This document shows positions 5,293 to 25,611 of a stretch of DNA of 64,000 nt, in pieces. The position numbers were made by a program, and so were the translations under genes. How positions within the stretch are numbered: position 1 is the first letter of the stretch; each line of letters opens with the position of its first letter. The stretch comes from Nitrospirota bacterium (lineage in GTDB: Bacteria > Nitrospirota > Thermodesulfovibrionia > Thermodesulfovibrionales > Dissulfurispiraceae). A model generated the notes under the pieces. The model searched no databases. It was not told the origin of the DNA and was given only the letters and a program-made list of their open reading frames with translations. Location of the stretch: positions 512,001 through 576,000 of the forward strand of contig CAWBMP010000002.1 in NCBI GenBank assembly GCA_963790025.1, read 5' to 3'.

Positions 5293-5300
5293 CTCTACTC

Positions 5301-6263: not shown

Positions 6264-7087
6264 TTCAACCTCTCTATTGCTTTATCGATTTCTTCAGGCC
6301 GTATGTTTTTTATGTGGCTCAGAGAATCTGTCTCAAGATGCGGCACACCCTTCCCTTTTATCGTGTTTGCGAGAAGCAGCTTCGGCTTGCCGCCCCTATC
6401 AGCCTTCAATCTTTTTAGAGAGGCATACACCCGGCCGACGTCATGTCCGTCTACTGTCTTGACTGCCCACTTAAAGTTCTTGAATTTATTCTCGAGCGGT
6501 TCCAGTTCCAGTATGTTATTGCAGTAATCAAGCATGCAGGCTTTATTGTTGTCAACGACCAATACCAGATTGTCCAGCCTGTGCTCCCCTGCAAACATTA
6601 TCGCCTCCCACACCGAACCCTCATATAATTCGCCATCACCCAGAAGCACGAAAACACTTTCCCCCTTCCCCTTCTTTTTTAAGGCGAGGGACACTCCGCA
6701 GGCAACGCCGAGCCCGTGCCCCAAAGAGCCGTTTATTGTTTCATATCCAGGGATAAGCGCATCAGGAATGCCTCCCAAAAAAGAGCCCTCTTTACAGACC
6801 CTTTTCAGTTCCTGCATATCAAAATAGCCGAGATCAGCGAGTATCGGATAGAATGAAATCGAGCCGTGCCCTTTGCTGATTATAAATCTGTCTCTATTTT
6901 CCCACCGCGTATTCTTCGGATCAAAACTTATGATCTTCCCATAAAACAACGCAACAAATATCTCTACGGCGGAAAGAGATGAGGCAAGTCTCGTCTCCTG
7001 TGCTATTCTGTGTATATTCAGAGTTTCCTTGCGTACCCATAGTGCTTTATCTTTCATGAACTGAATGCTGACGCCAGCTTTTTTCAT
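6260..7087 (-). CDS. Transketolase-like N-terminal (TPP-binding) subunit
   Basis: DRFIISKGH, GSLGHGL, TPP motif GDGELYEGSVWEA...NN, DGHD, TIKGKG. Confidence 0.9.
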   Translation of the reverse strand: MKKAGVSIQFMKDKALWVRKETLNIHRIAQETRLASSLSAVEIFVALFYGKIISFDPKNTRWENRDRFIISKGHGSISFYPILADLGYFDMQELKRVCKEGSFLGGIPDALIPGYETINGSLGHGLGVACGVSLALKKKGKGESVFVLLGDGELYEGSVWEAIMFAGEHRLDNLVLVVDNNKACMLDYCNNILELEPLENKFKNFKWAVKTVDGHDVGRVYASLKRLKADRGGKPKLLLANTIKGKGVPHLETDSLSHIKNIRPEEIDKAIERLK

Positions 7088-8040: not shown

Positions 8041-8063
8041 CTCTTTTTTCTCTCCTTCAATCT

Positions 8064-9005: not shown

Positions 9006-9054
9006 TTATTCCTCCTGGCCTCTTGCCCCGGCGTTGAACTTGCCGACACAAATC

Positions 9055-10065
9055 TCATTTGTTTTTTCCATTTTGATAACCCGGCATGTATACGATAATC
9101 TCAGAGCCGGTGAAGTCAAATTTAAAAGGTATGTGCAGATACCCCTTCAACGCTTTTTTTATCCTGTCTTGATACTCGGGTTCTGCATAAAAAAGCATAA
9201 AACCGCCGCCGCCCGCGCCCAGGAGCTTTCCGCCGAGAGCGCCGTTTTTAATAGCGGCTTCATATATGGCATCGACCTCACTGTTACTGATTTTGTCAGA
9301 CAGCCTTCTCTTTAACGACCATGTTTCACTTAAAAGCCTTCCAAAATCAGACAGGTCATCCCTCCCGGAAATGAGTGTCTTATATGCCTCATTGACCAGC
9401 TCTCTCATAGCAGACAATTCTTTTTTGTTTTTGGGAGTATTTTGTATCTGCTCTTTGGCTATCTCCGATGCATATCTCGCTATCCCGGTAAAAAAGAGCA
9501 TGAACTTGCTTTCAAAATTTCTTAAATGTTTTTCTTTCATTATTATGGGCTCGACAATAATCTCTCCGTTTTGCAAAAATTCAATCGTGTTCAGTCCCCC
9601 GCATGCGGCCCACACCTGGTCCTGCGAGCCCACGTTTTCTTTTATGAGGTTTTGTTCTATATGTATCGCCGTTTTATAAAGTTCTTCCTTTGTAATAATT
9701 TTCCCATCAAGTGCATAGAGGGTTTTAAGGAGCCCTACGGTAAATGCCGAGCTTGAACCCATGCCTGAGCGGGCAGGAATATCCCCGTCGTGATGGACCT
9801 CTATCCCATGCCCGATTTCCAAATACTTCAATGTTTCCCTCGCGGACGGGTGCTGGATTTCATCCAGATGCAATACTGTTTCCACTTTTGAATAGGCAAT
9901 CCTGTGTTTATGCTCAAAAAAAGGCGGAAGTTCCCTGCAAGTTATATAGCAGTATTTATCTATTGCGACTCCCAACACCTTACCCCCATTTTCCAGATAC
10001 CATGAAGGGTAATCCGTTCCTCCCCCGAAAAAAGAGATCCTATGGGGTGTCCTTGAAATAATCAT
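9055..10065 (-). CDS. hddA: D-glycero-alpha-D-manno-heptose-7-phosphate kinase (GHMP family)
   Basis: RISFFGGGTD, PARSGMGSSS, GSQDQ, GGKLLGAGGGGF. Confidence 0.85.
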   Translation of the reverse strand: MIISRTPHRISFFGGGTDYPSWYLENGGKVLGVAIDKYCYITCRELPPFFEHKHRIAYSKVETVLHLDEIQHPSARETLKYLEIGHGIEVHHDGDIPARSGMGSSSAFTVGLLKTLYALDGKIITKEELYKTAIHIEQNLIKENVGSQDQVWAACGGLNTIEFLQNGEIIVEPIIMKEKHLRNFESKFMLFFTGIARYASEIAKEQIQNTPKNKKELSAMRELVNEAYKTLISGRDDLSDFGRLLSETWSLKRRLSDKISNSEVDAIYEAAIKNGALGGKLLGAGGGGFMLFYAEPEYQDRIKKALKGYLHIPFKFDFTGSEIIVYMPGYQNGKNK

Positions 10066-10775
10066 TGTAATGCTCCTTTAACAACATGCTTTAATTCCTG
10101 TTGCGCCCTTTTATAATCTTCGGGGACCCCGATATCAATAAAGTAATTGTCACAAATGAAAGCAAAAGAACTTATTTTCATTACATTATTATATAAAAAA
10201 TCGACCTCAAAAGAAAAAGCGCCTTCACTGCACTCAAAAAAATCTGAAATGGCCTTCCCAATCACAATGACCCCGCCGTTTACGTACCCAAAAGGCTTGA
10301 AAGACTTCTCGTCAAATCCTATTACTCTCTTTTCCTTCACTATCACTGTTCCGTATCTGTCGACATAATGCATGGGTTTTACGGCAAACGTTAATAATGA
10401 GTCATGTTCGATATGAAAATCAACCATTTTTCTAAGGTCAACGTCAAAAAAAGTATCGCCATTCAGCACAACAGCGTTGTCCCCTCTAACTTTCTTCAAG
10501 GCTTCTCTTATGGCGCCGCCTGTTCCGAGCGGTGTCTCTTCAACAATGTACTCTATATCGATTTTTTTATAGTTAGCGCCGAAATAATCCCTGATGACCT
10601 CGTATTTATATCCCACAGAAAGCAAAATCCTGCCTATATCCTGCCCTGACAGGTAGTCCATTACATAAGACAGAAAAGGCCTGCCGTTTATATCAGCCAT
10701 GGGTTTGGGAACGTCTCTCACCACGCTCTGAAGCCGCGTGCCGACCCCCCCGGCCAGGATCACCGCTTCCATCAA
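10062..10775 (-). CDS. hddC: Heptose-1-phosphate guanylyltransferase (nucleotidyltransferase)
   Basis: ILAGGVGTRLQSVVRDVPKPMA, PLGTGGAI, NGDTFF, FSFE, FIDIGVPEDY. Confidence 0.82.
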   Translation of the reverse strand: MMEAVILAGGVGTRLQSVVRDVPKPMADINGRPFLSYVMDYLSGQDIGRILLSVGYKYEVIRDYFGANYKKIDIEYIVEETPLGTGGAIREALKKVRGDNAVVLNGDTFFDVDLRKMVDFHIEHDSLLTFAVKPMHYVDRYGTVIVKEKRVIGFDEKSFKPFGYVNGGVIVIGKAISDFFECSEGAFSFEVDFLYNNVMKISSFAFICDNYFIDIGVPEDYKRAQQELKHVVKGALQ

Positions 10776-11887
10776 TCCATTATGCCCGACACAATGCCGC
10801 TTACCATCCTTGCAATGGCGGGAGACGCTGTCAGTCCCGGCGACTCTATGCCTATAAGGTTGATAAGGCCAGGCAATCCCTTATCCGCTTCATCGGTAAT
10901 TACAAAGTCACTTGCCTTTTCGCCAGGACCGGATAATTTGGGACGAATGCCAGCCATATCCGGAATAAATGCATCTTCTTCGAGACCGGGTATGATCTTT
11001 AATGCCCCCTTGTAAAAGGCTTCTTTACTGGCAGCGTCAACCTTGTAATCGATACGATCGACATATTCGGTGTCAGGCCCGAAGCGCAGCCTTCCCCCAA
11101 GATCGAGCGTTGCATGGACCCCCAAACCTATTAATTCTTGGTGAGGCACAGGGTAGACAAGCATCTTAACTGGCGAGGTGTTTGCGTATGAAAAATATGA
11201 GCCCTTGCAAAACCTGAGTTTATATCCGCTCGCTGTTACGTCTATACCCGCGAGTCCGGCAATATAGTCTGCCGAAAGTCCGGCACAATTTATAACCACC
11301 TTAGACCTGAGCTGATAGTTCTCCTGCTTAATACCGACAATAAAGCCGTCTCTCTCATTGTTAATCTGTACCACTTCGCTGTTAAATGCAAAGATAACTC
11401 CCTTGTCTTCAGCCTTATTGAAGAAATGCTTCATCAAAGAATGTGAATCTACAATCCCGGTATTGGGGGAATAAATGGCTGCTATAGCGTTGGTATTGGG
11501 CTCAATCCTTTTAACCTCTTGCGCATCCAGAAGCGTCAAATCTTTCACCCGGTTCTTTGCACCTTTTTCAAGGAATTCCTCGAGGGACTTCAATTCGGTC
11601 CGGTCCGTAGCGACTATTAGTTTGCCCAATCTTTTGTGAGGGATCGAATATTCCTTACATTCCCTGTATAATAGTTCAGCGCCATTTACACATAACCGCG
11701 CCTTTAAAGAGCCTTCCTGATAATATATGCCTGAATGTATAACCTCGCTGTTGCGGCTGCTCGTCTCCTGACCAAAGCGATCGTGTCTCTCAAGGACTGC
11801 GATATTCTCGAATATCTCCGACAATTCCGCGGCAATCGCAAGGCCGACAACACCGGCCCCAATAATGGTTATCTCAACCTGGTCCAT
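10772..11887 (-). CDS. lhgO: FAD-dependent oxidoreductase, L-2-hydroxyglutarate oxidase/dehydrogenase family
   Basis: IIGAGVVGLA, ETSSRNSEVIHSGIYY..GSLKARLC, GKLIVAT, LGVHATLDL, AGIRPK, GIESPGLTAS. Confidence 0.8.
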   Translation of the reverse strand: MDQVEITIIGAGVVGLAIAAELSEIFENIAVLERHDRFGQETSSRNSEVIHSGIYYQEGSLKARLCVNGAELLYRECKEYSIPHKRLGKLIVATDRTELKSLEEFLEKGAKNRVKDLTLLDAQEVKRIEPNTNAIAAIYSPNTGIVDSHSLMKHFFNKAEDKGVIFAFNSEVVQINNERDGFIVGIKQENYQLRSKVVINCAGLSADYIAGLAGIDVTASGYKLRFCKGSYFSYANTSPVKMLVYPVPHQELIGLGVHATLDLGGRLRFGPDTEYVDRIDYKVDAASKEAFYKGALKIIPGLEEDAFIPDMAGIRPKLSGPGEKASDFVITDEADKGLPGLINLIGIESPGLTASPAIARMVSGIVSGIMD

Positions 11888-11969: not shown

Positions 11970-12575
11970 CTAATCGGATACGGCAGCGGGAACGGCGGCA
12001 GGATTTCTTGAAATGGCCTTTGTTATGCTGTACCCGTTCGATTCCGGCGAACCATACAGCTTGATTGCCATCCCATAGCCGACCGCCTCGACGTCACCTT
12101 TAATATCCCTTGTCCATCCTTCTGAATTATAAAAAGTAATTGCTGCCGTATGGCCCAGTAAGTCATATTTCTTTATTGCATTACGGATGTATGCTTGATA
12201 GGGAGCAAAAATGAGAACAAAACCGTGCACGCCCCATATCCTTTTGGCAAGATAAAACCCAGTCACCAGCAGCGATATCATTGAAACGGCATAAACCAGC
12301 CTGAAAACCATGACGGGGTCACTAGCGACCATTTCCATGAAAGCGCACATAAATGAAGCGAGCATAGGCCGCCAGATCGCCGGGGAATCGAGTGGTGCGG
12401 CTATATACCCATTACCAAGCAGGAGGTTTTTTCCAATCATTATTTCAAAGACATTCCACTGGATTGTTGGAAGCAATCCGCCAACATGAAAGAAGAAGGC
12501 TGCACCAACAATTGCCCATAGAACCGGATATTCGGCAGCAATTGCTGTCAACATGAATTTGATTCTGGAAATCAT
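11970..12575 (-). CDS. Short membrane protein, possibly an internally deleted remnant of a GT-C (ArnT/PMT-like) transferase
   Basis: Likely start ATG at 12575 (ATGA overlap with the upstream stop); three hydrophobic segments, NLLLGNGY...IWRPMLA loop, then an abrupt soluble tail. Confidence 0.45.
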   Translation of the reverse strand: MISRIKFMLTAIAAEYPVLWAIVGAAFFFHVGGLLPTIQWNVFEIMIGKNLLLGNGYIAAPLDSPAIWRPMLASFMCAFMEMVASDPVMVFRLVYAVSMISLLVTGFYLAKRIWGVHGFVLIFAPYQAYIRNAIKKYDLLGHTAAITFYNSEGWTRDIKGDVEAVGYGMAIKLYGSPESNGYSITKAISRNPAAVPAAVSD

Positions 12576-13528
12576 ATATCCTGAGGGATGCCGCCCAATC
12601 TCATGTGGGAATGCAGAAAATAGGGCAATCCTGCGGCAACCGTAAAGAAAAAAGCCCCTGCCTGATATGCAAAAGACAGGGCCAGGGCCCCCTCCTTGGG
12701 CACGCCGAACTGAGACAGCGCCATCCAGAACGCCAGCTGCATAACGCCAAGACCGCCGGGAGTGGATGGAATAAGGAGACCGAGGTTTATAAACAGGAAC
12801 AGTACGGCAGCGGATTCGAATTTCAACCGGACGCCCTGAGAGATAAGCGCAAGGACCCCCCAATAATTGAACATCCAAACAATGAAGCTGAGCACGAGGA
12901 GATGCAGTATTTTGCCTGACTGATTTAACCGTGCCAGTGGAGAGAAAAAATTGTTCATAATGTGCAGGACCCTCTCAGGAATAAACAACATCCGGCCTCT
13001 GAGCGTCCTTAGCCGGTCCACGTTGAGCAGGAAAAACAGCATTATAAAGACCAATAACCCCCATACGGCAATCACTATTCTTGCACCTTTAAACGACAGC
13101 CCGTGGATGCCGTAAAACAAACATGCCATGAGCAGCAGCCCCAGCGATAATACGTCGAAAATGCGCTCGATGAAAACTGTGGAAAGAATATATGTCCTGG
13201 AGGCCCCGGTATGAGAGGCAAGATAGTATGCACGGTACAATTCCCCAGCGCGGAGAGGCAGAATATTGTTGACCATATATCCGACCATTATTCCCCCGAA
13301 AAGTGTTGACAATCTTATGTCGCCCACAGGCGACGTAGTGATGCGCCACATATAAGCCCGCACAACACAACTCGCCCCGAAACAGGCTATGCAAAGCAGC
13401 AGTGCAAAATAATTAATGCCCCTGAATGCGTAAATGAATTCCCTGAAGTTTATTCTATAAAATGCTCCGGCCAGAAATGCAATGCTGATTATCGTCCCAA
13501 GGGCAATTTTTGTGGTTCGTTTAGTCAT
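12572..13528 (-). CDS. Lysylphosphatidylglycerol synthase TM-domain / UPF0104 flippase-like membrane protein
   Basis: NNILPLRAGELYR, ERIFDV, IPSTPGGLGV motifs; about 8 TM segments. Confidence 0.85.
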   Translation of the reverse strand: MTKRTTKIALGTIISIAFLAGAFYRINFREFIYAFRGINYFALLLCIACFGASCVVRAYMWRITTSPVGDIRLSTLFGGIMVGYMVNNILPLRAGELYRAYYLASHTGASRTYILSTVFIERIFDVLSLGLLLMACLFYGIHGLSFKGARIVIAVWGLLVFIMLFFLLNVDRLRTLRGRMLFIPERVLHIMNNFFSPLARLNQSGKILHLLVLSFIVWMFNYWGVLALISQGVRLKFESAAVLFLFINLGLLIPSTPGGLGVMQLAFWMALSQFGVPKEGALALSFAYQAGAFFFTVAAGLPYFLHSHMRLGGIPQDI

Positions 13529-13532
13529 CTCG

Positions 13533-13599
13533 ATAATACAGTGTCAGTGATAGTGTCCGTTTAAGGATTCCTGCATGTACACTGCACTGACACTGTTAT
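13533..13599. other. Intergenic inverted repeat built from CAGTGT-like hexamers (possible RNA hairpin)
   Basis: ACAGTGTCAGTG (13538-13549) is the exact reverse complement of CACTGACACTGT (13585-13596); the stem extends imperfectly with AGTGT/ACACT. Confidence 0.6.
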
Positions 13600-14306
13600 A
13601 TTTCATATCCGGCTGACTGGGCGTCTTTATAAAACATCTTCACCGTATCCAGTGAAAGTTCATCAAGTTCCTTGTCCACCAATGAAAGTTTTTTGAGGAT
13701 ATCATTGGTGACAGTAATAATATGGCAGCCGCATGCTTCAGCGTGGAATATATTGAGAAGCTCCCTGGAGCTTGCCCATAAGAGTTCGGCTTTGAAATTG
13801 GGTTTAAGTATTTCTGCTGATTTCTTCATAATGGGCATAGGATCGCGACCCGTATCAGCAATCCTGCCTGCGAACACGGACACTATGCTGTTCACCTTCG
13901 TCGACAGAACTTCAGACAAAGCCTCGACCTGACCGAGCGTCAGAATCGCGGTTATATTCAATGACAGGCCATCAGCAGAAAGCTTCTTGATGAGCGGTAT
14001 AGAAGACTCACCCTTCGTATTAGTTATAGGAATCTTAATGTTTACGTTTTTCCCCCAGCTGGCTATTTCGCGCGCTTCCCGTTCCATTTTGTCGAACTCA
14101 TCGGAAAACACCTCGAAAGATATGGGATGGTCCTTTATTTCAGCCAGTACTGCCTTTGCAAATGCCTTGTAATCGGTCACCCCTGCCTTTTTCATGAGCG
14201 TAGGATTAGTCGTAAAACCTTTCACTACCCCCCGTTTGTGCGCCTCTTTCATTTCCGCTATGTCGGCTCCGTCCGCAAAAAGCTTGATTTTCAGCATGCT
14301 CTTCAT
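13596..14306 (-). CDS. tal: Transaldolase (short TalC/Fsa-like form)
   Basis: FADGAD, GFTTNPTLMKK, ISFEV, Schiff-base lysine IKIP, NITAI, SVFAGRIADTG, WASSRE. Confidence 0.9.
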   Translation of the reverse strand: MKSMLKIKLFADGADIAEMKEAHKRGVVKGFTTNPTLMKKAGVTDYKAFAKAVLAEIKDHPISFEVFSDEFDKMEREAREIASWGKNVNIKIPITNTKGESSIPLIKKLSADGLSLNITAILTLGQVEALSEVLSTKVNSIVSVFAGRIADTGRDPMPIMKKSAEILKPNFKAELLWASSRELLNIFHAEACGCHIITVTNDILKKLSLVDKELDELSLDTVKMFYKDAQSAGYEI

Positions 14307-14899
14307 TTCTCCTCCATGTTTACCGATAAGGTATTATTTATAATATCAACAGCTTCTTTGAGGTCTCCTGCCCTGAACTCCGGTGAACTCTTACCTCTTT
14401 TATTCTTAGAGTGACCCTCGTCGATCAGTATAGTCTTCAAACCGAAAGACTGTCCGCATAAGGTGTCCGAATCCTGATCTCCTATAAACCAGGAATCCGT
14501 AATAGAAAAATCGAAATCCCTTTTAGCCTCTTCCAAAAAAAGCGTGCCCGGTTTGCGGCAGCGGCAAACGCCCGTCAATTCCGAAACAAGACCGTTCGGG
14601 TGATGGTAACAGTAATAATATCGCGCAAAACCAATCCCGTGTTCCAAAAAAATCCTATGGAGTGACTCATGAATGGCTTTGATGTTTTCCATGGATGTTT
14701 TCCCTTTCGCAAAGCTCGGCTGATTGGAAACAAGAAAAAGCAGGTACTCCATTTCCATCAGGGCACGTAATGACGACACTGTCCATGGAAAAAGCTCAAG
14801 GTCAGCTACATTATGGGGAGATTCGTATTCCCCTGTATTCGGATTGAATACCAGCCGGTTTATTACCCCGTCCCTGTCCAGAAATACAGCCTTTGGCAT
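14303..14899 (-). CDS. gmhB: HAD-IIIA sugar-bisphosphate phosphatase (GmhB/LmbK-like)
   Basis: FLDRDGVIN, VSNQ, CYHHP...C.CRKP, FIGDQDSD. Confidence 0.85.
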   Translation of the reverse strand: MPKAVFLDRDGVINRLVFNPNTGEYESPHNVADLELFPWTVSSLRALMEMEYLLFLVSNQPSFAKGKTSMENIKAIHESLHRIFLEHGIGFARYYYCYHHPNGLVSELTGVCRCRKPGTLFLEEAKRDFDFSITDSWFIGDQDSDTLCGQSFGLKTILIDEGHSKNKRGKSSPEFRAGDLKEAVDIINNTLSVNMEEK

Positions 14900-16219
14900 C
14901 TATTTAACGGATTCCCATTTCATTTCGTATGCCTTGAGTGCGGGATGGGAGACAACCAAATGCCAGATGACTCCCTGAAAGGCTTCGGTATGGGGAGTCA
15001 CGGTTTCGTTGTTCACTGTCGGCACAAGCACGCAGGCATCAGCCACTTTCGCTGTATATCCGCCGTCTCTTCCCACCACACCGATAATACTGGCGCCCGT
15101 TTCTCTTGCATATTTCAAGGCATGGACAAGATTTGCGCTGATATTTTTTTCAGCATTGCCGCCGCCAACTGAGAAGACGAAGATGCAGTCATTGGCAGTT
15201 AGCCGGCTGCCTTTCAGCCAGTTGACAAACACGGTTTCCCATCCATCGTCATTAACGCGGGCTGTCAGTTCCGATACATTATCAGTGGGGGCATAGGACT
15301 CGATACCTGCAATCTTCCTGAAGTCGTTTACGGCATGGGCCGCATTACCAGCTCCTCCGCCGACTCCCAGAATGAAGAGTCTTCCCTTCTTCTCTCTCGT
15401 ATCGAGTAAAACCTTGACGGCTTTCTCTACCGCGTCCCTGTTTATGGAATTTGCAATGGTGACGACTTCAGACAAGTACATGTCTATGTAATCCCTGTAC
15501 CCCACTTTATTCCTCCCTTTTTTCCCATTTTCAAAAAAAATTCGCGTCTCTTCAAGCCCTTCATGAGAACCTATCTCGTAAAAGCGTTCCCTCACTTCGT
15601 AGCCCGCCATCTCTCCCCTGGATATCAAGTCCTTATATAGTTCCGCAAGATCAAAGGCCTCTCCTTCTCTTCTTTCTTCGAATACTTCTCTCTTCAGCAA
15701 AGAAAGACCATAGTCAATATACTCCATGTCAGGAGTTATGTCCTTCTTGTCGTATTTGACAATATTGTCGTTGTGATACACAATGTTGCTTCTGTCCCAC
15801 CGGTCCCTGTTATGCAGAACTGTCATAAGGGCAGGTTTTCCGCTCACCTCGAATTTCCGTTGTATGTCAGAATAGTCGCAATCCAGATATGAATCGCCGT
15901 ACAATACGAAAAAAGCGCTTCCCAGCATGGGCAGGGCTTTTTTCAGCGAACCGCCAGTACCCAGAAGAACGGGACCGTCATATGAATATTCGATTTGCAA
16001 TCCCATTTTGTCGCCGTTGCCGAGAGCGTCACGGACCATCTCACCCAAATAGCCTACGCATAGGACCACCTCCCGTATAGAGTTTCTTTTCAGAAGCTCA
16101 AGCTGATGCACTATGAAAGGCCGTCCGCCTATTTCCACCAGGGCCTTGGGTATTTTTTCCGTAACCGGCCTGAGTCTCGTTGCCAGGCCGCCTGCCAGAA
16201 TTGCAACAGGGAGCATCAC
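14900..16219 (-). CDS. Fusion of a sugar-1-phosphate nucleotidyltransferase and a SIS-domain (GmhA-like) phosphosugar isomerase
   Basis: N-terminal ILAGGLATRL..PKAL, LGTGG, YGDSYL, FYEIGS; C-terminal GVGGGAGNAAHAVND, TARVNDDG, PHTEAFQ. Confidence 0.85.
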   Translation of the reverse strand: MMLPVAILAGGLATRLRPVTEKIPKALVEIGGRPFIVHQLELLKRNSIREVVLCVGYLGEMVRDALGNGDKMGLQIEYSYDGPVLLGTGGSLKKALPMLGSAFFVLYGDSYLDCDYSDIQRKFEVSGKPALMTVLHNRDRWDRSNIVYHNDNIVKYDKKDITPDMEYIDYGLSLLKREVFEERREGEAFDLAELYKDLISRGEMAGYEVRERFYEIGSHEGLEETRIFFENGKKGRNKVGYRDYIDMYLSEVVTIANSINRDAVEKAVKVLLDTREKKGRLFILGVGGGAGNAAHAVNDFRKIAGIESYAPTDNVSELTARVNDDGWETVFVNWLKGSRLTANDCIFVFSVGGGNAEKNISANLVHALKYARETGASIIGVVGRDGGYTAKVADACVLVPTVNNETVTPHTEAFQGVIWHLVVSHPALKAYEMKWESVK

Positions 16220-17199
16220 GACTGCGTGACCACCTTGGTCCCCTCAAAATCGAAACGGAAGCGTACTTCGTACATTCCGGCCCCGGCCATGGCATGGCGC
16301 AACCGCCTCTTGTCTTCAGTGTAAAACATTAGGAACCCACCGCCTCCCGCGCCTATGAGTTTTCCTCCAAGAGCGCCGTTTTTCAGCGCCAGATTATACA
16401 GGTCGTCGATATGGGAGTTGCTCATATTGCCGGAGCGTTTCTTTTTATATTCCCAGTGCTCGTTCATTATACGGGCAAATTCGCCAAGATCGCCGGACTC
16501 AAAGGCATCTTTGCTCCTGTACCCCATTTCCTTCACAAAATGCAGATTTGCAATCATTGAGTTGTCTTTCTTCTTACTCTTGTCATCCTGTTCCTTAAGT
16601 ATGGATGATGCGCTCCGGGAATATCCTGTGAAAAAAAGCAGCAGGTTGTCTTCAAGATTGTATAACGTCTCGCTGGATATTTTAAGCGGCCACGCTTCAA
16701 CCTGCCCATCGGTCAGGAATTTAAAACAGGTAATCCCTCCGTAAGCAGCTATATACTGGTCCTGTTTTCCTATGGGCTCCCCCAGTTTTTCTATCTCGAT
16801 ATGACATGCCTGCTCGGCCAACTCCCGGGGATGAACAAGGTTCTTTTTTAAAGTATGCAACGCCTTGAGAAGCGCTGTTGTAAAACTCCCTGATGAACCC
16901 AGGCCTGTACCTGCCGGGATATCAGCCATGCTGGTTATTTCAAGATACGGAGCAGCAATGTCCAATGCCTTCAGGGATTCCCTGATAATAGGGTGCTGGA
17001 CATCATCAATATTAGTAACTTTTTCCATTCTTGAATATTTGATAATTAATTCCTGAAGAAAGGTATGATGCAACGTGATATATACATATTTATCAATAGC
17101 TGCCGCAATGAGAAATCCCGTATGTTCCCGGTAGTAGGAAGGCAAATCGGTGCCACCGCCGCCAAGGGAAATTCTTAAAGGGCTCCTCGTGATAATCAT
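16216..17199 (-). CDS. GHMP sugar-phosphate kinase (HddA/LmbP-like), second copy
   Basis: PLRISLGGGGTDLP, PAGTGLGSSG, GKQDQY, GGKLIGAGGGGF. Confidence 0.87.
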   Translation of the reverse strand: MIITRSPLRISLGGGGTDLPSYYREHTGFLIAAAIDKYVYITLHHTFLQELIIKYSRMEKVTNIDDVQHPIIRESLKALDIAAPYLEITSMADIPAGTGLGSSGSFTTALLKALHTLKKNLVHPRELAEQACHIEIEKLGEPIGKQDQYIAAYGGITCFKFLTDGQVEAWPLKISSETLYNLEDNLLLFFTGYSRSASSILKEQDDKSKKKDNSMIANLHFVKEMGYRSKDAFESGDLGEFARIMNEHWEYKKKRSGNMSNSHIDDLYNLALKNGALGGKLIGAGGGGFLMFYTEDKRRLRHAMAGAGMYEVRFRFDFEGTKVVTQS

Positions 17200-18173
17200 C
17201 TGTATCTTCCCCCATAGAGCTTATGAACAACTTCGAGGGCCGCCTTTGCATCCTCGAGATTTCCAGCAGGCTCAATATCCGTACCGATAGCCTGCACAAA
17301 ATAATCGAATTCAGTCTTCCATGAGTTGTCGGGAAAGGGATATTCCCATATAGTTGTTTCCGGGGGGCCCATCTGGGGAAGCATTCTATAGTAGGTCAAA
17401 CGTTCAACTCCATAACTGCCTCCAAGTCCGTCAATCTGGAGCTTTCCGTTCCTGCCGTATATTTCGAGGCAAAACATGTTTTTCCACTCGGAGCAACTGG
17501 CATGCAACCACGCCATCTGGTCCTTTTTCGTACGCATGGCTATAAAACCGTTATCTTCAACAGGCATGTTCCAGAAATACGTACCGACAAACCCCTCAAC
17601 TACATCGAAATCCCCCATAATCCAGCGGGACAAGTCAATTAAATGGACACCCTGATCCAGGAGTTCCCCACCACCGGCTACATGAGGATCTGCCCTCCAT
17701 TCCCGATCATAGCCGATGCGTCCGCCCTGCCCGTATCTTCCCCGGATAAACATCAATTCACCGAGAACGCCCGAATCGATAATCTTTTTTGCTTTCATCA
17801 TGGCCGGATGGAATCTCAGGTTGAACCCGACTTTTACCTTTCGTCCAAGTGAACGTGCCTTTTCGATGAGAGGCCCTATTTCCTGTGGGGAACGGGCCGC
17901 GGGTTTTTCCACTAAGACGTGCTTGCCATGCTCCACAGCAAACAGGCTGACAGGTGTAAGCCAGTCATTAGTTGTGGCAACAATTACAAGTTCGACTTCA
18001 GGATGGCCGACTGCCGTTCTCCAGTCGGTCGTCGCAACCGCGTTATCTCCGAAGCCGCTGACACACTGCGCCCTTTGGATATTATTGTCTGCAGTTATTA
18101 TCAACTGGTGCCTACCGAGGGCCCTCGCCCTTTTCTCCCCTATCAACCCGCAGCCCACAATCGCAATTTTCAT
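17196..18173 (-). CDS. Gfo/Idh/MocA family oxidoreductase (LmbZ-like by context)
   Basis: IVGCGLIG, VLVEKP, GFNLRFHP, GGGELLDQGVHLID. Confidence 0.88.
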   Translation of the reverse strand: MKIAIVGCGLIGEKRARALGRHQLIITADNNIQRAQCVSGFGDNAVATTDWRTAVGHPEVELVIVATTNDWLTPVSLFAVEHGKHVLVEKPAARSPQEIGPLIEKARSLGRKVKVGFNLRFHPAMMKAKKIIDSGVLGELMFIRGRYGQGGRIGYDREWRADPHVAGGGELLDQGVHLIDLSRWIMGDFDVVEGFVGTYFWNMPVEDNGFIAMRTKKDQMAWLHASCSEWKNMFCLEIYGRNGKLQIDGLGGSYGVERLTYYRMLPQMGPPETTIWEYPFPDNSWKTEFDYFVQAIGTDIEPAGNLEDAKAALEVVHKLYGGRYR

Positions 18174-18179
18174 ATAAGC

Positions 18180-19016
18180 GAACCCACGTCACTTCCCCGC
18201 TTCCCGGGAAAATCCTTTTCAAGATGATTTCGTTGCAAATTCCCTGTAATTTTCACGAACGTTATAAGCCTGCCAGATATCCTTATCATTTGCCTTTCCC
18301 GTTGCTGCAGAGAAACTCTAGGTAAGCACATAGAGAGTCCCCGACTTCAGGTGCCGTCCCGCCTGTGTCCTTTTGTTTCAGAGATCTTTCTAAAACTTTC
18401 CCCGGCTTTCCCAGCGCTCTCGATTATTTCCTGCGTCATTCCGGTCCTTACCGCTCCGGGCGCAACAGCGTTGATGCCAAATGCAGACACACGGCACTCT
18501 TCAGAAACTGTTTCGACCAGACGCAGCACGCCTGTCTTCGCCACTCCATAGGCAGAGAAATTAGGACGGGCGTGAGCCGCCACCCGAAAAATGGATGATT
18601 ATGCCGTAACGCTTTTCTTTCATATGGGGAATAATATATTTACATGAATAAAAGATACCGAACAGGTTTATTTCAATGGCCCTTGTCCATTCTGTGCTGT
18701 CCACATCTTCTATTTGTCCCTTGGGGCCGTATACGCCGGCATTATTGACAAATATGTCGATACTATTCAGATCATCAATACTCCTGGCGATGAAACTGTT
18801 CACATCGGACTCAACAGAGACATCGGCTTTTAATGAGATTATCTTCTGGCTTGGTCCAGCCATACACATCAGCCTCTCTCTCGCATTCTCAAGCTTAATA
18901 TCATCTCTAGCGCAAATTACCAGTGATGCTCCTTCTTTCACAAACTCTTCAGCAATTGCCAATCCGAGCCCCTGATTGGCGCCTGTAATAATAGCATTAC
19001 GGTTTTTCAGTCGCAC
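18180..19016 (-). pseudogene. Short-chain dehydrogenase/reductase, frameshifted with a degenerate C-terminus
   Basis: TGANQGLG and NNAG in 18561..19016; RPNFSAYGVAK (YxxxK) and NAVAPG in another frame (18347..18583); tail broken. Confidence 0.75.
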
Positions 19017-20307
19017 TCACGGGCCGCCACGGTATCATAGATTTATGTTATCCTTAGTCACTAAAAAGGCCCCGAACAAATCCGTTCTCAATGCACAACT
19101 TTACCTTTTAAAGAGCTCACGGATCTCTTGTCTATTTCCCGCAAAGAAGGGTGCTCGGTTGCAACAATAATGCAGCAGCTCCGAGCAGGGCATCTTCAGA
19201 AGATGCCGCAAGGGTAATGATTCCCTTCAAATTGTCGGGCAATTCCTGAACATGCGGGTCAACTGCCGAATAATAGCCCCTTGACTGTTCAGCCACTTAC
19301 ATAATTCAACCGACCAGGACCTCCTGAGAGCGCCGGTCCCGGGCTTATACGTCAGACCCAAAACAGTGATTGCCCTGCCCTTCAAATCCTTTAGGTATTC
19401 CATGCACTTTCTTTTTGCCCAGTCCTTATGGTGTGCGTTACTCTCTCTTACGGCCTCAAACAGATAATTGATACGCTTGTGCTCCTCTCCGATTTTAATA
19501 AGAAAATTTATGTCTCTAGCCAATGTGCCGCCGGCGAAAGCTGACCCCGGCTTAACATATGCCTTTTGTCCGATCCTCTCCTCTGTCTTCAGTCCCCGTT
19601 CCACTTCAAGGGCATCAGCGCCCACTGATTCGCACAACGCAGCTATTTCATCCGCAAAAACAATCGATATTGCAAGGAATGCATTGATTGCATGCTTCGT
19701 GATCTCTGCGGATGCAATTCCCATCCATTCAAGCCGATCGCTTATGGATGAAAAAATTGGACTAATTAATGCAATATCCTGCCTTTTCCGAACACCGATT
19801 ACTATCCTGTCCGGGTTCTCAAATACCTGAATTGCTTTTCCCAGCCGCAGGTTTTCGGGAGAGTAGAGCAAAAATAAAATTACGGTCGAGGAAACGCTCA
19901 CTTGAAGGTATTTTTCAATCCTTTCGGCAAAATGTACGGGCACCTGGGATGATATGATAATCCTGCCTATCCGGCTCCCGCCGAAAATCCGATATGCACC
20001 GTATCTTCCATTCTATGAAGTCAATGTCCGCCAGGTCATCCTCGTCAACCGGGGTATCAAATGCAATCCATACAGCATCGGCATCTTTTAGAGCGGCTGC
20101 AGGATCATCAGTAAAATCAAGACTTCTATCTTCGAGCCCTTGTCGTACTAATTCCTCAAGCCCCGGTTCATATACAGGGAGCTGTCCCTTCTTCAATCCG
20201 GAAATAGTTTCTTTATCATAGTCCAGTCCCGTTACGGCAAGTCCTCTCCGGGCCATACAGGCAGCAATAACGGTCCCAAGATGCCATAGCCCGAAAACAC
20301 AAATATT
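19017..20307 (-). pseudogene. UDP-glucose/GDP-mannose dehydrogenase-like protein (LmbL-like), fragmented, start codon not found
   Basis: ICVFGLWHLGTV near 20304, PVYEPGL, YSPENLRLG, AEITKHAINAFLA, GGTLARD (Thr where the family has catalytic Cys), LGLTYKPGT, spread over several frames. Confidence 0.75.
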
Positions 20308-21256
20308 CTCCTTTCAAACACCCAGGGGTTTTCTTCAGAAATTCCACTGTCCTGATAACAGCGTCCTGTATTGTCAGCCTGGGCCGCCACCCGAGGTTCC
20401 TGATCCTCGAGCAGTCCAGAAAAATAAACGGGCTGTCGCCAATCCATCCCCGCTCTCCGCCTGCATATTTCAGTGCAGGCTTAATCCCCAGATTTTCAGT
20501 AATCCAGGCGATGGAATTATTGACTTCACAGTATTCATCTGTTCCAAGATTTAGAATGTTCACTTTCTCATGGGCCTTATCGGCAGCGAGGAGCATCGCA
20601 TCGATACAATCCTGAACATAAAGGTATGACTTCCGCTGGTGTCCGTTTCCCAGGACGAACAATTCGTTAGGATTTGCCAGCAGCTTATTGTAAAAATCGA
20701 AGACATGCCCGTGAGTGTACCGCTCTCCCAGAATGGAAACGAATCTAAAAATCCACGCCTGGAAGCCGAAGCCTTCACAGTAGGCCGAAATCAAACTTTC
20801 TCCTGCAAGCTTGGAGGCGCCGTAAAGCGATGTCTGGACAGGGAACGGAGCGTTTTCCGGCGTAGGGAAAACATCCGGCTCTCCGTAAACAGAACCCGTT
20901 GAGGAGAAGGCTATCTTTTTAATTCCATTTGCCCTCATCGCCTCAAGGACATTAAATGTTGCAATAGTATTCTGCTCAAGATCTTTACGTGGGTGTTCCG
21001 TCCCAAAACGGACGTCCGCATTGGCTGCAAAGTGAAAAACAAAATCGCAACCCTGCATAGCCGCGTTCAGGGTTTCCGTATTGAGAAGGTCGTCCCTCAC
21101 AAGGATAAACCTCTTCGAACTTCCAGCCAGTTCGATGAACTCTTCGAACCCTGTTGAAAAATTGTCATATCCAACCACATAATGCCCATCCTGCAGAAGC
21201 CGGTCTGTCAGGGAACTTCCGATAAAACCGGCGCATCCCGTTATAAAATAGCGCAT
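20216..21256 (-). CDS. NAD-dependent nucleotide-sugar epimerase (LmbM-like by context); last codons appear frameshifted
   Basis: TGCAGFIGS, HFAANADV, SSTGSVYG, YGASK; the natural tail ENPWVFERR lies in another frame near 20330. Confidence 0.82.
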   Translation of the reverse strand: MRYFITGCAGFIGSSLTDRLLQDGHYVVGYDNFSTGFEEFIELAGSSKRFILVRDDLLNTETLNAAMQGCDFVFHFAANADVRFGTEHPRKDLEQNTIATFNVLEAMRANGIKKIAFSSTGSVYGEPDVFPTPENAPFPVQTSLYGASKLAGESLISAYCEGFGFQAWIFRFVSILGERYTHGHVFDFYNKLLANPNELFVLGNGHQRKSYLYVQDCIDAMLLAADKAHEKVNILNLGTDEYCEVNNSIAWITENLGIKPALKYAGGERGWIGDSPFIFLDCSRIRNLGWRPRLTIQDAVIRTVEFLKKTPGCLKGEYLCFRAMASWDRYCCLYGPERTCRNGTGL

Positions 21257-21265: not shown

Positions 21266-22672
21266 TCATTTTTCTCCTTTCCTGTCTTCGTACAACGTTC
21301 CAAACCTGAATCTGAACAATGCCCAGATCCATAACAGCGGGTCCTTAATTAAAGAAACTTTTTTCCCTTGCTTGAACGAACGGGAATTATAATTTACAGG
21401 AATTTCCAGCGGCCGGTATCCTTTTCTCAATAATTTTATTACAATTTCCCAGTCAAAATCAAATCTGTTCGCCTTGAATGTCAACCCATAAAGACAATCG
21501 CGCCGGAAGATTTTATACATGGTAAACGGATCTTTCAGCTTTGAACCGCAAAAAAGATTCAAAAGGGAAGTGAAAAAAATCTGCCCAAAATTCATGATCA
21601 GCGACATCTGGGGTTGATCGGTAAAATGGCGCATTTTCCAGCCTTTTGAATGCCGAGACCCGAGAACAAACGCCTTTTGGTATTTCATAAGGGGTTCCAG
21701 CAGTTCATCGTAATCGTTAAGATCATATTCAAGGTCCCCGTCCTGGATCATTATGAAATCCCCGGCAGCGTATTGCAACCCTGTTCGGACCGCATGCCCC
21801 TTCCCTTGAGGCCTGTCCTCGAATACGAGCCTGACTCCCGGGGTGTCTTTGTAGCGCAGTACCTCTTCCCGGGTTCCATCAGTCGAATTGCTTTCCACAA
21901 CGATGACTTCTCTGTCCAGCCCCGGCAGTTCCTTTGCAAGCAGCGTTTCCATGAGTTCCGGAAAGGTTTCCTTTTCGTTGTAAACCGGTAAAATAACAGA
22001 AAGAGCAGGCTTGCTTTTCGCAGGCGACTTCCGGGACATGACAACCATAAACTGCTTGTTGCGGGAAATGCCGACATCGCGGAACCATGTCTTTGCCAGG
22101 GCATTCTGTATTGTCTGGGAATCGAAATAGTGAAGGTAATCGACCGGAACACCACCTCCGTTGCCGGTCACTGAGCTTTTGGGCCCGATATCGCATGAAG
22201 GAGTGGCAATCAAGAGACGGCCATCCGGTTTGAGTGCAGAATGTACCTTGAGCAACAGTTCTATGGGGTCCCGAACATGCCCGATAACATCAAACAAGGC
22301 ACAGACGTCGAACTGGCCGGAAGGCAGGTTTCCATATCCGGAAATATCGATGGACTGTACTTCAAACCCCGCCTCCATCGCCGCCGTGATCAAAGATCCA
22401 TTGCTGGAGCCGATTTCGAGAAGTCTTCCTTTTTCCTGGCCCGAATAATCAAGCAGACTCTTAAGAAATAATGGCACATCATAAAAACGGCTTTCATCAT
22501 GACGCCGCTGCAACCTTTCATCAGCCGGCTGCGGATTAAGGAAAACAAAGCCGCAGTCCTCGCATTGATATACAGCTTTCCCGTTCCTTACAAACGAATA
22601 ATGGATCCGGTTGCTGTCGCAAAGATAACAAGCGGGTTTGAAATTTGTTTCATTTTTAATTAGCAGGATCAA
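21266..22672 (-). CDS. Fusion of a Zn-ribbon/class I methyltransferase-like domain and a DPM-synthase-like GT2
   Basis: CYLC..CEDC, LLEIGSSNG, DVIGHVRDP; then SVILPVYNE, SNSTDGT, GKGHAVR, IQDGDLEY, GSR, DPFTMYK, EIPVNY. Confidence 0.85.
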   Translation of the reverse strand: MILLIKNETNFKPACYLCDSNRIHYSFVRNGKAVYQCEDCGFVFLNPQPADERLQRRHDESRFYDVPLFLKSLLDYSGQEKGRLLEIGSSNGSLITAAMEAGFEVQSIDISGYGNLPSGQFDVCALFDVIGHVRDPIELLLKVHSALKPDGRLLIATPSCDIGPKSSVTGNGGGVPVDYLHYFDSQTIQNALAKTWFRDVGISRNKQFMVVMSRKSPAKSKPALSVILPVYNEKETFPELMETLLAKELPGLDREVIVVESNSTDGTREEVLRYKDTPGVRLVFEDRPQGKGHAVRTGLQYAAGDFIMIQDGDLEYDLNDYDELLEPLMKYQKAFVLGSRHSKGWKMRHFTDQPQMSLIMNFGQIFFTSLLNLFCGSKLKDPFTMYKIFRRDCLYGLTFKANRFDFDWEIVIKLLRKGYRPLEIPVNYNSRSFKQGKKVSLIKDPLLWIWALFRFRFGTLYEDRKGEK

Positions 22673-25611
22673 TCTTTGTTTCCGCGAACTTTAAAAAAAA
22701 GAACACAGACCCCTGCAAAGGAGGCAGCCGATATGAAAAGCCCGTACATAAAAGACTTTGGCCGGTATTTAAACTTTATTATATGCGGACCGGCCTCAAG
22801 GGCCACTCCCCTGAACAAATAATCGGCTTTTAATATTTTGGTTTCCCTTCCGTCGACGTCTACCTGCCATCCCGGATAGTTGCTGTCATTAAGCATTAGA
22901 ATCCCGGGCTCTTTCATATCAGCGCTCACCACTACTTCCTGCGATTGATAGGAAAGGATCCTGGCAGGCTCCACTTTTTGAGGAGGCGCCTGACTGATAG
23001 TCCGCACAAGAGATATTTCGCTTTCTTTGCATTGTGAGCAATCGATAATCGCTTTTTCAAATATATTAAAAGACCGGTCCTTCAGCCGCGCCAAAACAGT
23101 ATCTTTATTATCGATCATTTCCGCGCTATAAAAAACAGACGCCCTCGGTAGAACGTCGGGGAATTCATAAATAAACACCTCTTTGTCATAGATCATCCTG
23201 AATGGCGCATTATTGTCATAGATTTTGCTGGATGGCACTTTCCCGCCCGCAAATCCTATGTCTCCCCAACCTGCCCAATCAGCCCTGTTGTCACCCTTCG
23301 GTCCGGGGTCGGTGGAAAAAAGTAAAGTCACATCTTTCCCTGCGTATTTGCTGAGGTCAAGCTCATATGCATGCCACTTTCTTTCAGACACGTTATGTTT
23401 GGGGTCTATGTACTTGTAAAATATTTTTTGAATACCTGCATCGGAAGTTTTGATCTCTATAGTGAACCCGACGCCATCCCCAATCACCTTCCCTTTGTAC
23501 ACATCGGGATGTATGCCGATCGCAAATTTCAGGAGCGCAGTATCCTTATTGATTACGGTCCTGTATGGAAGTCTGAAGGAAGGAGGGTGTTGGAAAAGGA
23601 CGTTTTTCCTGACTCCTGCTATTGCAAAACATTGCGGGCCGTCCCCAATATGGCCTTCCCTCTGATACTTCTCAATAAAATTGGCCTGTTTAAGTTGGGC
23701 AAATATATCACTCGTCATGCCCGTAAAAGTAGGATAAATGCTCAACAGATATTTTACCGAGGAAAGCTGCAGAAACCGCTTTCCATTAACAGTAATAAAA
23801 TCATATCTCTTATCGCCGGTGCCTGTAAACCTGTCTGAAAGATCACTGTTTATTTTGGAAAGATCACCGTTTATCGATGACTTGTCATTTTCGCCAAGAA
23901 AAAAACTCCTGATAAACGATCTATAGGCAGAATAGTACATTGCGTCAAGTGATCGAACATCGTAAAGTCCGAAAACCCCGGCCCAGTTGGGATAAAGCAC
24001 ACCCTCTACGCCAAAAACCCTGGAATAATCCCGATTACTTTTTTTTATAAAACTGATGTAAGGGGCCCCCTGATACGGATTTATGGTACGGTCGGGAAGC
24101 CGGCATAGGGTGTAAAAGGACGGGATAAAGTTCAGCGCTATCTCTATGAGCAGTACTGAAAGCGAGGAAATAATAATCCATTTTTTTTCGGAATATTTCC
24201 CGTACAGGTAGAACAGTATATATCCGTTGGCTAGCAGGACCAGGAATGCGGTGACCAGAAAAGTCACGTTCTTAATCGTGTGGAACTCAGGCTTGAACTT
24301 TAAGGAAAGTGCCCCGACAATAGAGACCGTTAAACAAAAAGCAATCCTTAAATATCGATTCTTAATATTCATGTTTAATGTCGAGAAGCCTATCGCCGCA
24401 AGTACTGCAACCGCAAATGAGAGCATACCCTCCTGGTATTTTGGATACATTATAAACTTCGAAAGGGGAAGATATCCGATCCAGTTGACCGGAGCTACGC
24501 CGAAATGCTTCATGAACATCGAAACAACGGAAACGGCAAAAAACACCACAAGCGTCCCGATCACAGTTGTTTCCTGTTTCCACGGCGGCCTGAAATATAC
24601 CACAATTGCAGTTAAGGCAAAAATAAATGGAGTGATTCCCCAGTAATACTCAGTCTGTGTGGATCCGAAAGCATGAGGTACGAGAAAGAAAAGAGTGTTC
24701 CTGAATTCATCCATCCCATGATGAAGTATACCGTAAATCATTCCGGTATGCTCGAACTGGTGACTATTAAACGAATTTTTCAGGAACTCCAGGAAGGGGA
24801 GCAGAAGAAAGGCCGACAATGAAAAACCGAGCACATTGGCGATGACAAAAACCTTCACCAGGCCCCATTTTTCCCGCGTTAGAGAGTCGTCGGTGAGAAG
24901 CCTGAAAATAAAATACATATACCCGAAATTCAGTACCAGGAAGGTGGATTCAGGCATTCCGCCCATAACAGAAAAGAAAACCGCGGCAGTAATCGCAATA
25001 ATGCTCTTTGGGCCCCCCTTTCTTAAAAGCATCTCAAAAGAGCAGAAGACCGCGGGCAGCATAACATCCACGCTGATATGAGGCATATTCAGATAAGTTA
25101 TATAATATCCTGAGAACATGAATATTATCGAACCCGCAAAGGAGGAAACATCATCTACAAAAAACCTCAGGAAGATATAACAGAACATCCCTGCAACAAA
25201 CAGGCGAAGTATCAGATAAAGATCATAGGTATACTCCGTGGTATGCAAAGCGAGCAGCAATGAAGGCGGATAGAAAGGCTGCGACTGCATGTTAGCAGCC
25301 AAAGGAGTTCCATAGGCGCTGTAAGGGTTCCAGAAGGGGAGGTTTCTTTCCTTCGCAAGCTCATAATTCATGATCTTGAACCAGGGTTCGGACTGCCAGG
25401 CGGGAGCGCCCGGGTCCCTTGTGCGTTCTCCTTTTAGCCCCCGAACATCTCCGTAAGCCCCGTTTGGCATGATACTCGCAGTGTTTCCGATGCCGAGCAT
25501 CAATGACTTATTACCCCAGATAACCGGGAAGAAGGCTGCATTTAGAACAACAATCAGGACCAAACCCGCGCGGAGACATTCGTTTTTCAGTAATTTGCCC
25601 GTAAACTGCAT
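22669..25611 (-). CDS. YfhO-family GT-C membrane glycosyltransferase with an inserted beta-sandwich domain
   Basis: PFWNPYSAYGTPLAANMQSQPFYP, many TM segments, VLPRA, C-terminal DSNYPGWQVDVDG...FRGVAL..GPH.IKFKYRP. Confidence 0.82.
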   Translation of the reverse strand: MQFTGKLLKNECLRAGLVLIVVLNAAFFPVIWGNKSLMLGIGNTASIMPNGAYGDVRGLKGERTRDPGAPAWQSEPWFKIMNYELAKERNLPFWNPYSAYGTPLAANMQSQPFYPPSLLLALHTTEYTYDLYLILRLFVAGMFCYIFLRFFVDDVSSFAGSIIFMFSGYYITYLNMPHISVDVMLPAVFCSFEMLLRKGGPKSIIAITAAVFFSVMGGMPESTFLVLNFGYMYFIFRLLTDDSLTREKWGLVKVFVIANVLGFSLSAFLLLPFLEFLKNSFNSHQFEHTGMIYGILHHGMDEFRNTLFFLVPHAFGSTQTEYYWGITPFIFALTAIVVYFRPPWKQETTVIGTLVVFFAVSVVSMFMKHFGVAPVNWIGYLPLSKFIMYPKYQEGMLSFAVAVLAAIGFSTLNMNIKNRYLRIAFCLTVSIVGALSLKFKPEFHTIKNVTFLVTAFLVLLANGYILFYLYGKYSEKKWIIISSLSVLLIEIALNFIPSFYTLCRLPDRTINPYQGAPYISFIKKSNRDYSRVFGVEGVLYPNWAGVFGLYDVRSLDAMYYSAYRSFIRSFFLGENDKSSINGDLSKINSDLSDRFTGTGDKRYDFITVNGKRFLQLSSVKYLLSIYPTFTGMTSDIFAQLKQANFIEKYQREGHIGDGPQCFAIAGVRKNVLFQHPPSFRLPYRTVINKDTALLKFAIGIHPDVYKGKVIGDGVGFTIEIKTSDAGIQKIFYKYIDPKHNVSERKWHAYELDLSKYAGKDVTLLFSTDPGPKGDNRADWAGWGDIGFAGGKVPSSKIYDNNAPFRMIYDKEVFIYEFPDVLPRASVFYSAEMIDNKDTVLARLKDRSFNIFEKAIIDCSQCKESEISLVRTISQAPPQKVEPARILSYQSQEVVVSADMKEPGILMLNDSNYPGWQVDVDGRETKILKADYLFRGVALEAGPHIIKFKYRPKSFMYGLFISAASFAGVCVLFFKVRGNKD

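Follow-up and report, generated by a model that had tools for sequence, protein, structure and literature searches.

What sugar is made by the run of nine enzyme families that lies within a surface-glycan locus of the Nitrospirota bacterium represented by assembly GCA_963790025.1? The cassette lies in a stretch of 64,000 nucleotides from contig CAWBMP010000002.1 (positions 512,001 to 576,000; G000:C2:512001-576000), here called the window, in which it occupies the minus strand from 21256 down to 13596. We conclude that the cassette is real, widespread and uncharacterised (a literature search found no account of it, most subscription journals lying outside its coverage), and we propose, giving the idea an even chance, that it makes a nucleotide-activated, straight-chain octose for the surface glycan by chemistry like that of the lincosamide antibiotics. 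The nucleotide carrier is likely to be guanosine diphosphate (GDP). The gene content, the coupling between genes, the motifs and the existence of two versions of the locus are observations; the chemistry that we attach to them is deduced from sequence throughout.

A scan with NCBIfam models found all nine families side by side on the minus strand, in the order that an earlier note on this DNA had given. They are a nucleoside diphosphate (NDP)-sugar epimerase of the GDP-sugar 4-epimerase subgroup and an LmbM-like family (20216..21256); a gene resembling that for UDP-glucose dehydrogenase (UGD-like; 19014..20310), which NCBIfam calls a nucleotide-sugar dehydrogenase in two open reading frame (ORF) pieces; a reductase of the short-chain dehydrogenase/reductase (SDR) family (18170..19016); a Gfo/Idh/MocA oxidoreductase (Gfo) of an LmbZ-like family (17196..18173); a GHMP anomeric sugar kinase of the HddA/LmbP family, assigned by NCBIfam and, by a tree, to a clade of its own (16216..17199); a nucleotidyltransferase (NTase, about residues 1-232) fused to an SIS isomerase of a non-GmhA subfamily (about residues 240-439, 14903-15502; whole gene 14900..16219); a GmhB/LmbK-like HAD-IIIA phosphatase of 198 residues assigned by NCBIfam (14303..14899); and a transaldolase of the TIGR02134 type with 236 residues (13596..14306). 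The families and their order thus stand, but the UGD-like and SDR genes are frameshifted and the tail of the epimerase is shifted, none of which the note had reported. Apart from the transaldolase (TIGR02134, 350.9 bits vs 282), no intact cassette gene reaches an NCBIfam cut-off that is specific for a function. The cassette is embedded in a large glycan locus that also encodes Wzm/Wzt, a ligase-like protein, sugar transferases and a Wzx flippase; the same contig (C2) has another gmhB-like gene at a different place, and the housekeeping transaldolase is separate, on contig C5. Because the same gene order recurs intact in many genomes, the cassette is not a chance assembly.

To describe that recurrence we used the Gfo protein as a query against GTDB genomes and kept 80 of 130 relatives: 55 with 48-81% identity, and another 25, with 25-33%, that served as distant controls. 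Together with two plasmid loci (Rhizobium jaguaris, L098, and Lawsonia, L099) the former make up 57 close loci, many of them cut by contig ends, which carry the kinase in 52 cases, the NTase in 52, the SIS in 45, the phosphatase in 45, the epimerase in 42, the transaldolase in 35 and the UGD-like gene in 25. The kinase, NTase, SIS, phosphatase, transaldolase and UGD-like gene were found at none of the 25 distant controls. The complete nine-gene set is present at 15 of the 57 loci, and a further version, eight genes without the UGD-like gene, at 13. Judged by record titles, the cassette is spread over 11 phyla of bacteria and two genera of archaea, and a transaldolase above the TIGR02134 cut-off was found in 44 of the 55 close-Gfo genomes vs none of 14 controls. 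A close transaldolase was found in none of 40 near relatives of the source genome (best match 37%), and of 301 genomes from its phylum only 8, the source genome included, have the clade SIS; the occurrence is therefore patchy and, as gene content goes, has the pattern of a mobile glycan locus. Cultured carriers include R. jaguaris, with the UGD-like gene, and Methanospirillum stamsii and Acidobacteriaceae KBS 96, without it. Plasmid 3 of Lawsonia, a pig pathogen (NC_008014.1), has the full nine-gene set together with GT2 and flippase-like genes, under generic annotation only.

What links the cassette to octoses is its likeness to the lincosamide pathway of Streptomyces lincolnensis and S. caelestis, with which it has eight enzyme families in common, including a dedicated transaldolase and a UGD-like/Gfo pair. 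The correspondence claimed in the earlier note is borne out family for family, with LmbR, LmbN, LmbP, LmbK, LmbO, LmbM, LmbL and LmbZ, as set against the list of Lmb/Ccb enzyme families in PMC4351081; likeness was judged by family and by a published best-match table. According to the literature, LmbR produces an octulose from fructose-6-phosphate or sedoheptulose-7-phosphate and ribose-5-phosphate (PMC5854111), and the GDP-octose is converted by LmbM, LmbL, CcbZ and CcbS (PMC12945683). The two systems part at the aminotransferase: the lincosamide pathway has LmbS/CcbS, whereas the cassette has an SDR and, as had also been noticed before, no DegT-type gene within its bounds. A DegT-like gene was found at 1 of the 57 cassette loci and at 2 of 27 metagenome loci anchored on the UGD-like gene. 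The DegT gene of the window was considered as the LmbS counterpart and rejected, as it lies 31 kb away beside Gfo, hexapeptide and dehydrogenase genes of its own. At a separate locus (L296:1-3479) a DegT-like aminotransferase fragment adjoins transaldolase, epimerase and UGD-like genes, possibly an amino-sugar version nearer to the full Lmb set. The cassette differs further from the lincosamide pathway in standing among O-antigen-type genes (Wzm/Wzt, ligase-like, Wzx) and in having an optional UGD-like gene, and carrier-protein fusions, an adenylation domain and thiol-transfer genes were not seen with it.

The published best-match table (PMC4351081, supplement 1) names as nearest non-lincosamide homologues those of Solibacter for CcbK (49%), Sorangium for CcbN (39%) and CcbP (37%), uncultured Acidobacteria for CcbZ (40%), Acidobacterium for CcbO (38%) and Methanosarcina for CcbM (46%). 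Acidobacteriota and Polyangia are rich in the cassette, lineages that fit this table. The top structural relatives of the epimerase are PhGal4E_1 (PDB 8RDG), A. fulgidus 3EHE and 3AW9 (E 9e-84 and 5e-75), which belong with the archaeal-type GDP-sugar 4-epimerases, a subgroup that prefers GDP sugars according to PMC12171764; the enzymes described there were assayed singly on hexose nucleotides, and the paper does not mention octoses. No Lmb/Ccb protein was among the matches of the PDB search, which is no sign of non-orthology.

The isomerase and the transaldolase carry the argument that the cassette is something other than the familiar heptose route. The GmhA model (cut-off 209) gives the cassette SIS 50.5 bits and the separate GmhA of the genome 197 bits; conversely, a profile built from 22 SIS sequences gives 55 bits on the best solved GmhA. 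The HFAAE of GmhA is replaced by HAVND and, by eye, the Gln of RVQE by Glu, at what we take to be metal-ligand positions of GmhA. As a control for coupling we examined 251 genomes from the class of genome G094. The clade SIS was found in 39 of them, and GmhA-type genes, all below the cut-off at 155-205 bits, in 32. When the best 30 loci of each group were compared over the same 1.5-kb flank, a transaldolase was present at 22 of the 30 clade-SIS loci vs none of the 30 GmhA-type loci, counts to be read with kinship among the loci in mind, as these are not independent; even the six GmhA-type loci with HddA/HddC-like genes nearby were without a transaldolase. The pairing of SIS and transaldolase was found at all eight loci of the source phylum, the window included, and among 215 matching viral stretches the best 80 included 75 with a transaldolase near the SIS, up to 8 kb away. 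(A viral control search with one GmhA protein gave no match, and the genome-based control was used instead.) In addition, an in-frame transaldolase-SIS fusion exists (P0163), and NTase-SIS fusions like that of the window occur among the representatives. As for the transaldolase itself, it scores 351 bits on TIGR02134 vs 96 on TIGR00875, its residues D12, N34, E65, K91, F145, R148, S179 and R181 fit a true transaldolase, and K91, E65 and F145 align with solved transaldolases; we take K91 to be the Schiff-base lysine and the Glu and Phe to be the transaldolase signature. These comparisons support the view that the cassette SIS is an isomerase distinct from GmhA and closely tied to a transaldolase of its own.

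The UGD-like gene is the other distinguishing component. The earlier note had read in it GGTLARD and no catalytic cysteine; the motif is indeed at 19532-19512, downstream of GLWHLG, with its Thr in the alignment column that holds the catalytic Cys of GFGGSCFPKD. In a census of 120 homologues of the intact protein from locus L016 the Cys column holds Thr in 118 (the other 2 are gapped) and Trp stands at the second Gly in 119, while GTGYVG has become GLWHLG, KST has become SSQ and FLKE has become NLRL; the catalytic Lys, Asn and Asp are kept. In this family the catalytic Cys of UDP-glucose 6-dehydrogenase is thus gone and its GxGxxG NAD loop changed, and the protein is, on these motifs, a conserved, repurposed enzyme and probably not a four-electron dehydrogenase. 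(The ESM Atlas offers only generic UGD names for it, and the best 120 matches of two UGD-like searches included no Streptomyces or Coxiella name, most rows being nameless, so that this is not evidence of non-orthology.) The corresponding UGD-like/Gfo pair of the lincosamide pathway is said to carry out a 6,8-dehydration. At the 27 metagenome loci anchored on the UGD-like gene, many of them on short contigs, an SDR comes after it in 23 and a Gfo in 18; UGD-like/SDR fusions exist, and the Gfo is found naturally fused to SDR, kinase, NTase and phosphatase.

The UGD-like gene is also optional, both states being present in this assembly. Among 32 genomes with a locus that lacks it, a member of the clade turned up on a different contig in 2, and the other 30 gave matches at 36% or less, or none; we therefore reject the idea that the gene always lies elsewhere in the genome when the locus is without it. 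The SDR clades follow its presence: on a 38-row SDR tree, 3 changes suffice to account for where the UGD-like gene is present, vs 11.9 in shuffles, a figure to be read knowing that kin share labels, that the SDR of contig C1 (see below) is a long branch and that the sequences closest to it (L017 and L018, 50-52%) were left out.

Contig C1 of the same assembly, 26.3 kb long, carries the second version. It parallels the window from 48665 to about 18037 and is anchored to C2 at both ends, with 68-79% identity over its first 10 kb and 99.4% over the next 15 kb (window 35498-20307). After the shared part it continues with the epimerase (318 residues), a different, intact SDR (283 residues) and the Gfo; the UGD-like gene is absent. 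C1 has the appearance of a second strain in which the glycan locus was exchanged. In the window, by contrast, the UGD-like gene lies in at least 3 frames without a start codon (20304-19993, 19964-19242 and 19174-19094), the SDR is frameshifted near 18570, and the epimerase is read through by a 1-base deletion past its true end near 20300 into an ORF of 346 residues. The 5' half of the window SDR is of the type that partners the UGD-like protein (64% identical to that of L016), and its 3' half is largely of the C1 type (85.6%, with 18 gaps).

Have the UGD-like and SDR genes decayed here, so that the window copy no longer deoxygenates? The several frameshifts would fit such pseudogenisation, yet we consider it decidedly improbable. 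Across 18173-20340 the window alternates between stretches identical to C1 and foreign ones, as would be expected of a consensus over two haplotypes, and both genes are intact in relatives (442 residues for the UGD-like protein of L016). Two public runs were compared with the window, as contigs only and at a depth of 2-5. Run X1 has the letters of C1 at five places within 18179-18223; it has no cover at 18297-20342, which is not usable as proof of absence, and it may be related to the source sample and therefore offers weak independent support. Run X2 contributes a 151-base contig from inside the UGD-like gene, and this contig has an insertion of 1 base at 19267. A further cluster of indels, at 30-35 kb of the window, breaks a gene for an asparagine-synthase-like amidotransferase (31840-33761) into three pieces, whereas in C1 it is a single ORF of 654 residues. 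The alternation, the run data and this second cluster lead us to conclude that both versions of the locus are probably real and intact, as two strains or two copies. The window copy is accordingly a poor cloning template, and its contribution is the pair of versions within one assembly. Another irregularity is shared by both: the O-antigen-ligase-like gene has an in-frame 168-base repeat in three copies, 91-96% alike (window 26236-26733), and the repeat is found in C1 too.

How might the cassette work? The transaldolase would move a three-carbon unit from fructose-6-phosphate or sedoheptulose-7-phosphate to ribose-5-phosphate, giving octulose-8-phosphate, which the SIS would turn into an aldo-octose-8-phosphate and the GHMP kinase, phosphatase and NTase into an NDP-octose. 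The epimerase would then invert C4, and perhaps C6. Where the UGD-like protein is present, the Gfo would oxidise the sugar and the UGD-like protein eliminate water, and the partner SDR may reduce the ketone that LmbS would aminate, leaving a deoxy, non-amino sugar; that the UGD-bearing version does make a deoxy-octose we think possible but rather unlikely. In loci of the C1 kind, about half of the total, the Gfo and the different SDR would likely only epimerise. For some members of the family, transfer of the sugar outside the cytoplasm would probably fall to a polyprenyl-phosphate GT2 together with a YfhO-type membrane protein.

Several considerations weigh against an octose. No straight-chain aldo-octose in a surface glycan was found in the literature, a search to which most subscription journals were closed. 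A transaldolase can equally supply sedoheptulose-7-phosphate. The HddA model scores the cassette kinase at 178 bits (cut-off 600) and a kinase downstream of the cassette at 160, and the nearest solved structures of the cassette kinase are heptose kinases. GDP is not secured, because the NTase is nearer to MurU (131 bits) than to HddC (101 bits; cut-off 300), while the downstream NTase scores 252 on HddC. The 8-deoxy step hangs on a UGD-like gene that is broken here, absent in C1 and optional across genomes. No carrier-protein-SIS fusion was found among the 30 of 150 SIS representatives scanned, and no carrier-protein-Gfo fusion in the best 120 of 224 long Gfo matches. Finally, the homologues in the Ccb table are linked to the cassette by lineage name only; according to the same table (PMC4351081, supplement 1), CcbR (222 residues) has as its best match an ordinary actinobacterial transaldolase, from Cellulomonas (47%), as opposed to the TIGR02134 type of the cassette, and the best outside match of CcbL, in Thermodesulfatator, reaches only 33%.

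Much of this would be accommodated if the cassette made an unusual NDP-heptose, an explanation that we regard as a serious contender, though short of probable. The transaldolase would supply sedoheptulose-7-phosphate locally, its normal product by general knowledge; the divergent SIS would yield a heptose-7-phosphate, possibly the gluco epimer vs the manno epimer of GmhA; and the 4-epimerase, Gfo, SDR and optional UGD-like protein would reshape the heptose. For the kinase, phosphatase and isomerase, the closest families with a name and the closest structures belong to heptose enzymes, the automatic JGI label for the SIS clade is D-sedoheptulose 7-phosphate isomerase, and phage versions carry a trimmed set. 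Like the cassette, the pathway to GDP-D-glycero-alpha-D-manno-heptose (GmhA, HddA/WcbL, GmhB, HddC/WcbM) combines an isomerase, a GHMP kinase, a HAD phosphatase and an NTase in one glycan-locus operon. Yet all four cassette counterparts fall below the curated cut-offs, the cassette isomerase is a separate subfamily, and on a 32-row kinase tree the downstream kinase groups with three kinases that neighbour GmhA (SH-aLRT 100), apart from the clade of cassette kinases, a placement that comes with a long-branch warning. Moreover, GmhA and a housekeeping transaldolase are already encoded elsewhere in the genome, GmhA-type heptose loci, unlike the cassette, had no transaldolase neighbour (0/30, including the 6 with HddA/HddC-like neighbours), and the UGD-like/Gfo pair fits a 6,8-dehydration, which reportedly requires eight carbons. 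Improbable, in our judgement, is some other higher sugar, be it a nonose, an octose stereoisomer built on another pentose phosphate, a branched product or a cyclised one, and likewise a carrier nucleotide different from GDP. The transaldolase subfamily, which differs from that of CcbR as far as the published table goes, the MurU-like NTase and the existence of sister versions with a reversed HldE-type kinase/adenylyltransferase (L291) would suit such a product, and the preference of the epimerase subgroup for GDP sugars, as stated in PMC12171764, argues against it.

The SIS has relatives beyond the cassette. Viral contigs (L146-L225; for example L167:7995-11806) carry the SIS, phosphatase, transaldolase, a glycosyltransferase-like gene and the kinase in a row among phage-like genes, and a search of the cultured phages of INPHARED gave no SIS match at E 1e-15. 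Two loci (L290 and L291) combine the SIS with a phosphatase, a transaldolase, a Gfo and a second clade of Cys-less UGD, marked by AGGNLERD, which has at least 120 homologues at 55% or more. One of them (L291:9645-19112) is an ADP-type sister with SIS, GmhB, transaldolase, two epimerases, a reversed HldE, Gfo and a Cys-less UGD-like gene. Its order is like that annotated for CBU0674-CBU0678 of Coxiella burnetii, a likeness of annotation and gene order only; a transaldolase, a Gfo and a UGD are presumably among the neighbours of these Coxiella genes. Four reports deal with this O-antigen locus, which is annotated with an isomerase, epimerases and a reversed HldE (PMC5843353, PMC13552124, bioRxiv 10.64898/2026.05.14.724635, PMC3539893), and one of them states that cbu0678 is required for full-length lipopolysaccharide and that cbu0674, 0676 and 0677 mutate on passage (PMC5843353). 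In the literature the region is attributed to virenose.

Around the cassette lie genes that may serve its product. A methyltransferase-GT2 fusion (21266..22672, minus strand), whose GT2 part resembles polyprenyl-phosphate glycosyltransferases (88 bits on the AglJ model, below cut-off), has beside it a YfhO-family membrane protein (22669..25611, minus strand) that we take to be a probable GT-C; at the other end an LPG-synthase-TM/flippase-like membrane protein (12572..13528, minus strand) adjoins the transaldolase. Orthologues of the fusion (at least 45%) were found at 13 of the 57 cassette loci and YfhO homologues at 8, and a flippase-like gene flanks the transaldolase in the window and in the Lawsonia locus (1 of 57 by tblastn). 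Because GT2, YfhO and flippase-like genes accompany some cassettes, the sequences suggest lipid-phosphate-linked transfer of the sugar in part of the family.

Downstream is a further sugar cassette (3832..11887, wider bounds 2970-11887, minus strand) with genes for an FAD oxidoreductase, HddC-like, HddA-like, epimerase and Fcl-like proteins, a split transketolase, a B12 radical SAM protein and a TIM-barrel protein. It has no isomerase, and orthologues of its genes are not conserved neighbours of the nine-gene set; its possible product is a sugar derived from a heptose by branching or methylation. Neighbour conservation and the kinase tree both speak against counting its kinase/NTase pair as part of the nine-gene cassette, and the grouping of its kinase with those next to GmhA agrees with the earlier note, which had set this hddA/hddC pair apart. 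About 95 kb away (L226, G000:C2:612000-631999) is a third higher-sugar-like cassette, with a divergent SIS (93.5 bits on GmhA), split and reversed HldE-like genes, and radical SAM, epimerase, split transketolase, methyltransferase and DegT genes, and the window also holds a B12 radical SAM-GT4 fusion (54899-57745).

New here are the controlled coupling of transaldolase and isomerase, the motif census of the UGD-like family, the comparison with the published best-match table and the two-version mosaic. Should the product be a heptose, its route would still be undescribed, if less surprising. Straight-chain aldo-octoses are known mainly from antibiotics, and if the octose proposal is true, a class of sugar is missing from inventories of surface glycans, many genes now annotated as gmhA, hddA or UDP-glucose dehydrogenase carry the wrong label, and the lincosamide sugar pathway gains an origin and rare-sugar synthesis new enzymes. 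More broadly, and as a tentative picture that we would not yet call probable, an NDP-octose pathway of primary metabolism may be common in bacteria, archaea and some phages, decorating surfaces with unrecognised straight-chain octoses. The Cys-less UGD fold would then serve as an exchangeable module for deoxygenation, traded between close strains in the manner of a serotype switch, the sugar pathway of lincomycin would have been recruited from the cassette, and the ADP-type sister may underlie the unexplained O-antigen locus of Coxiella.

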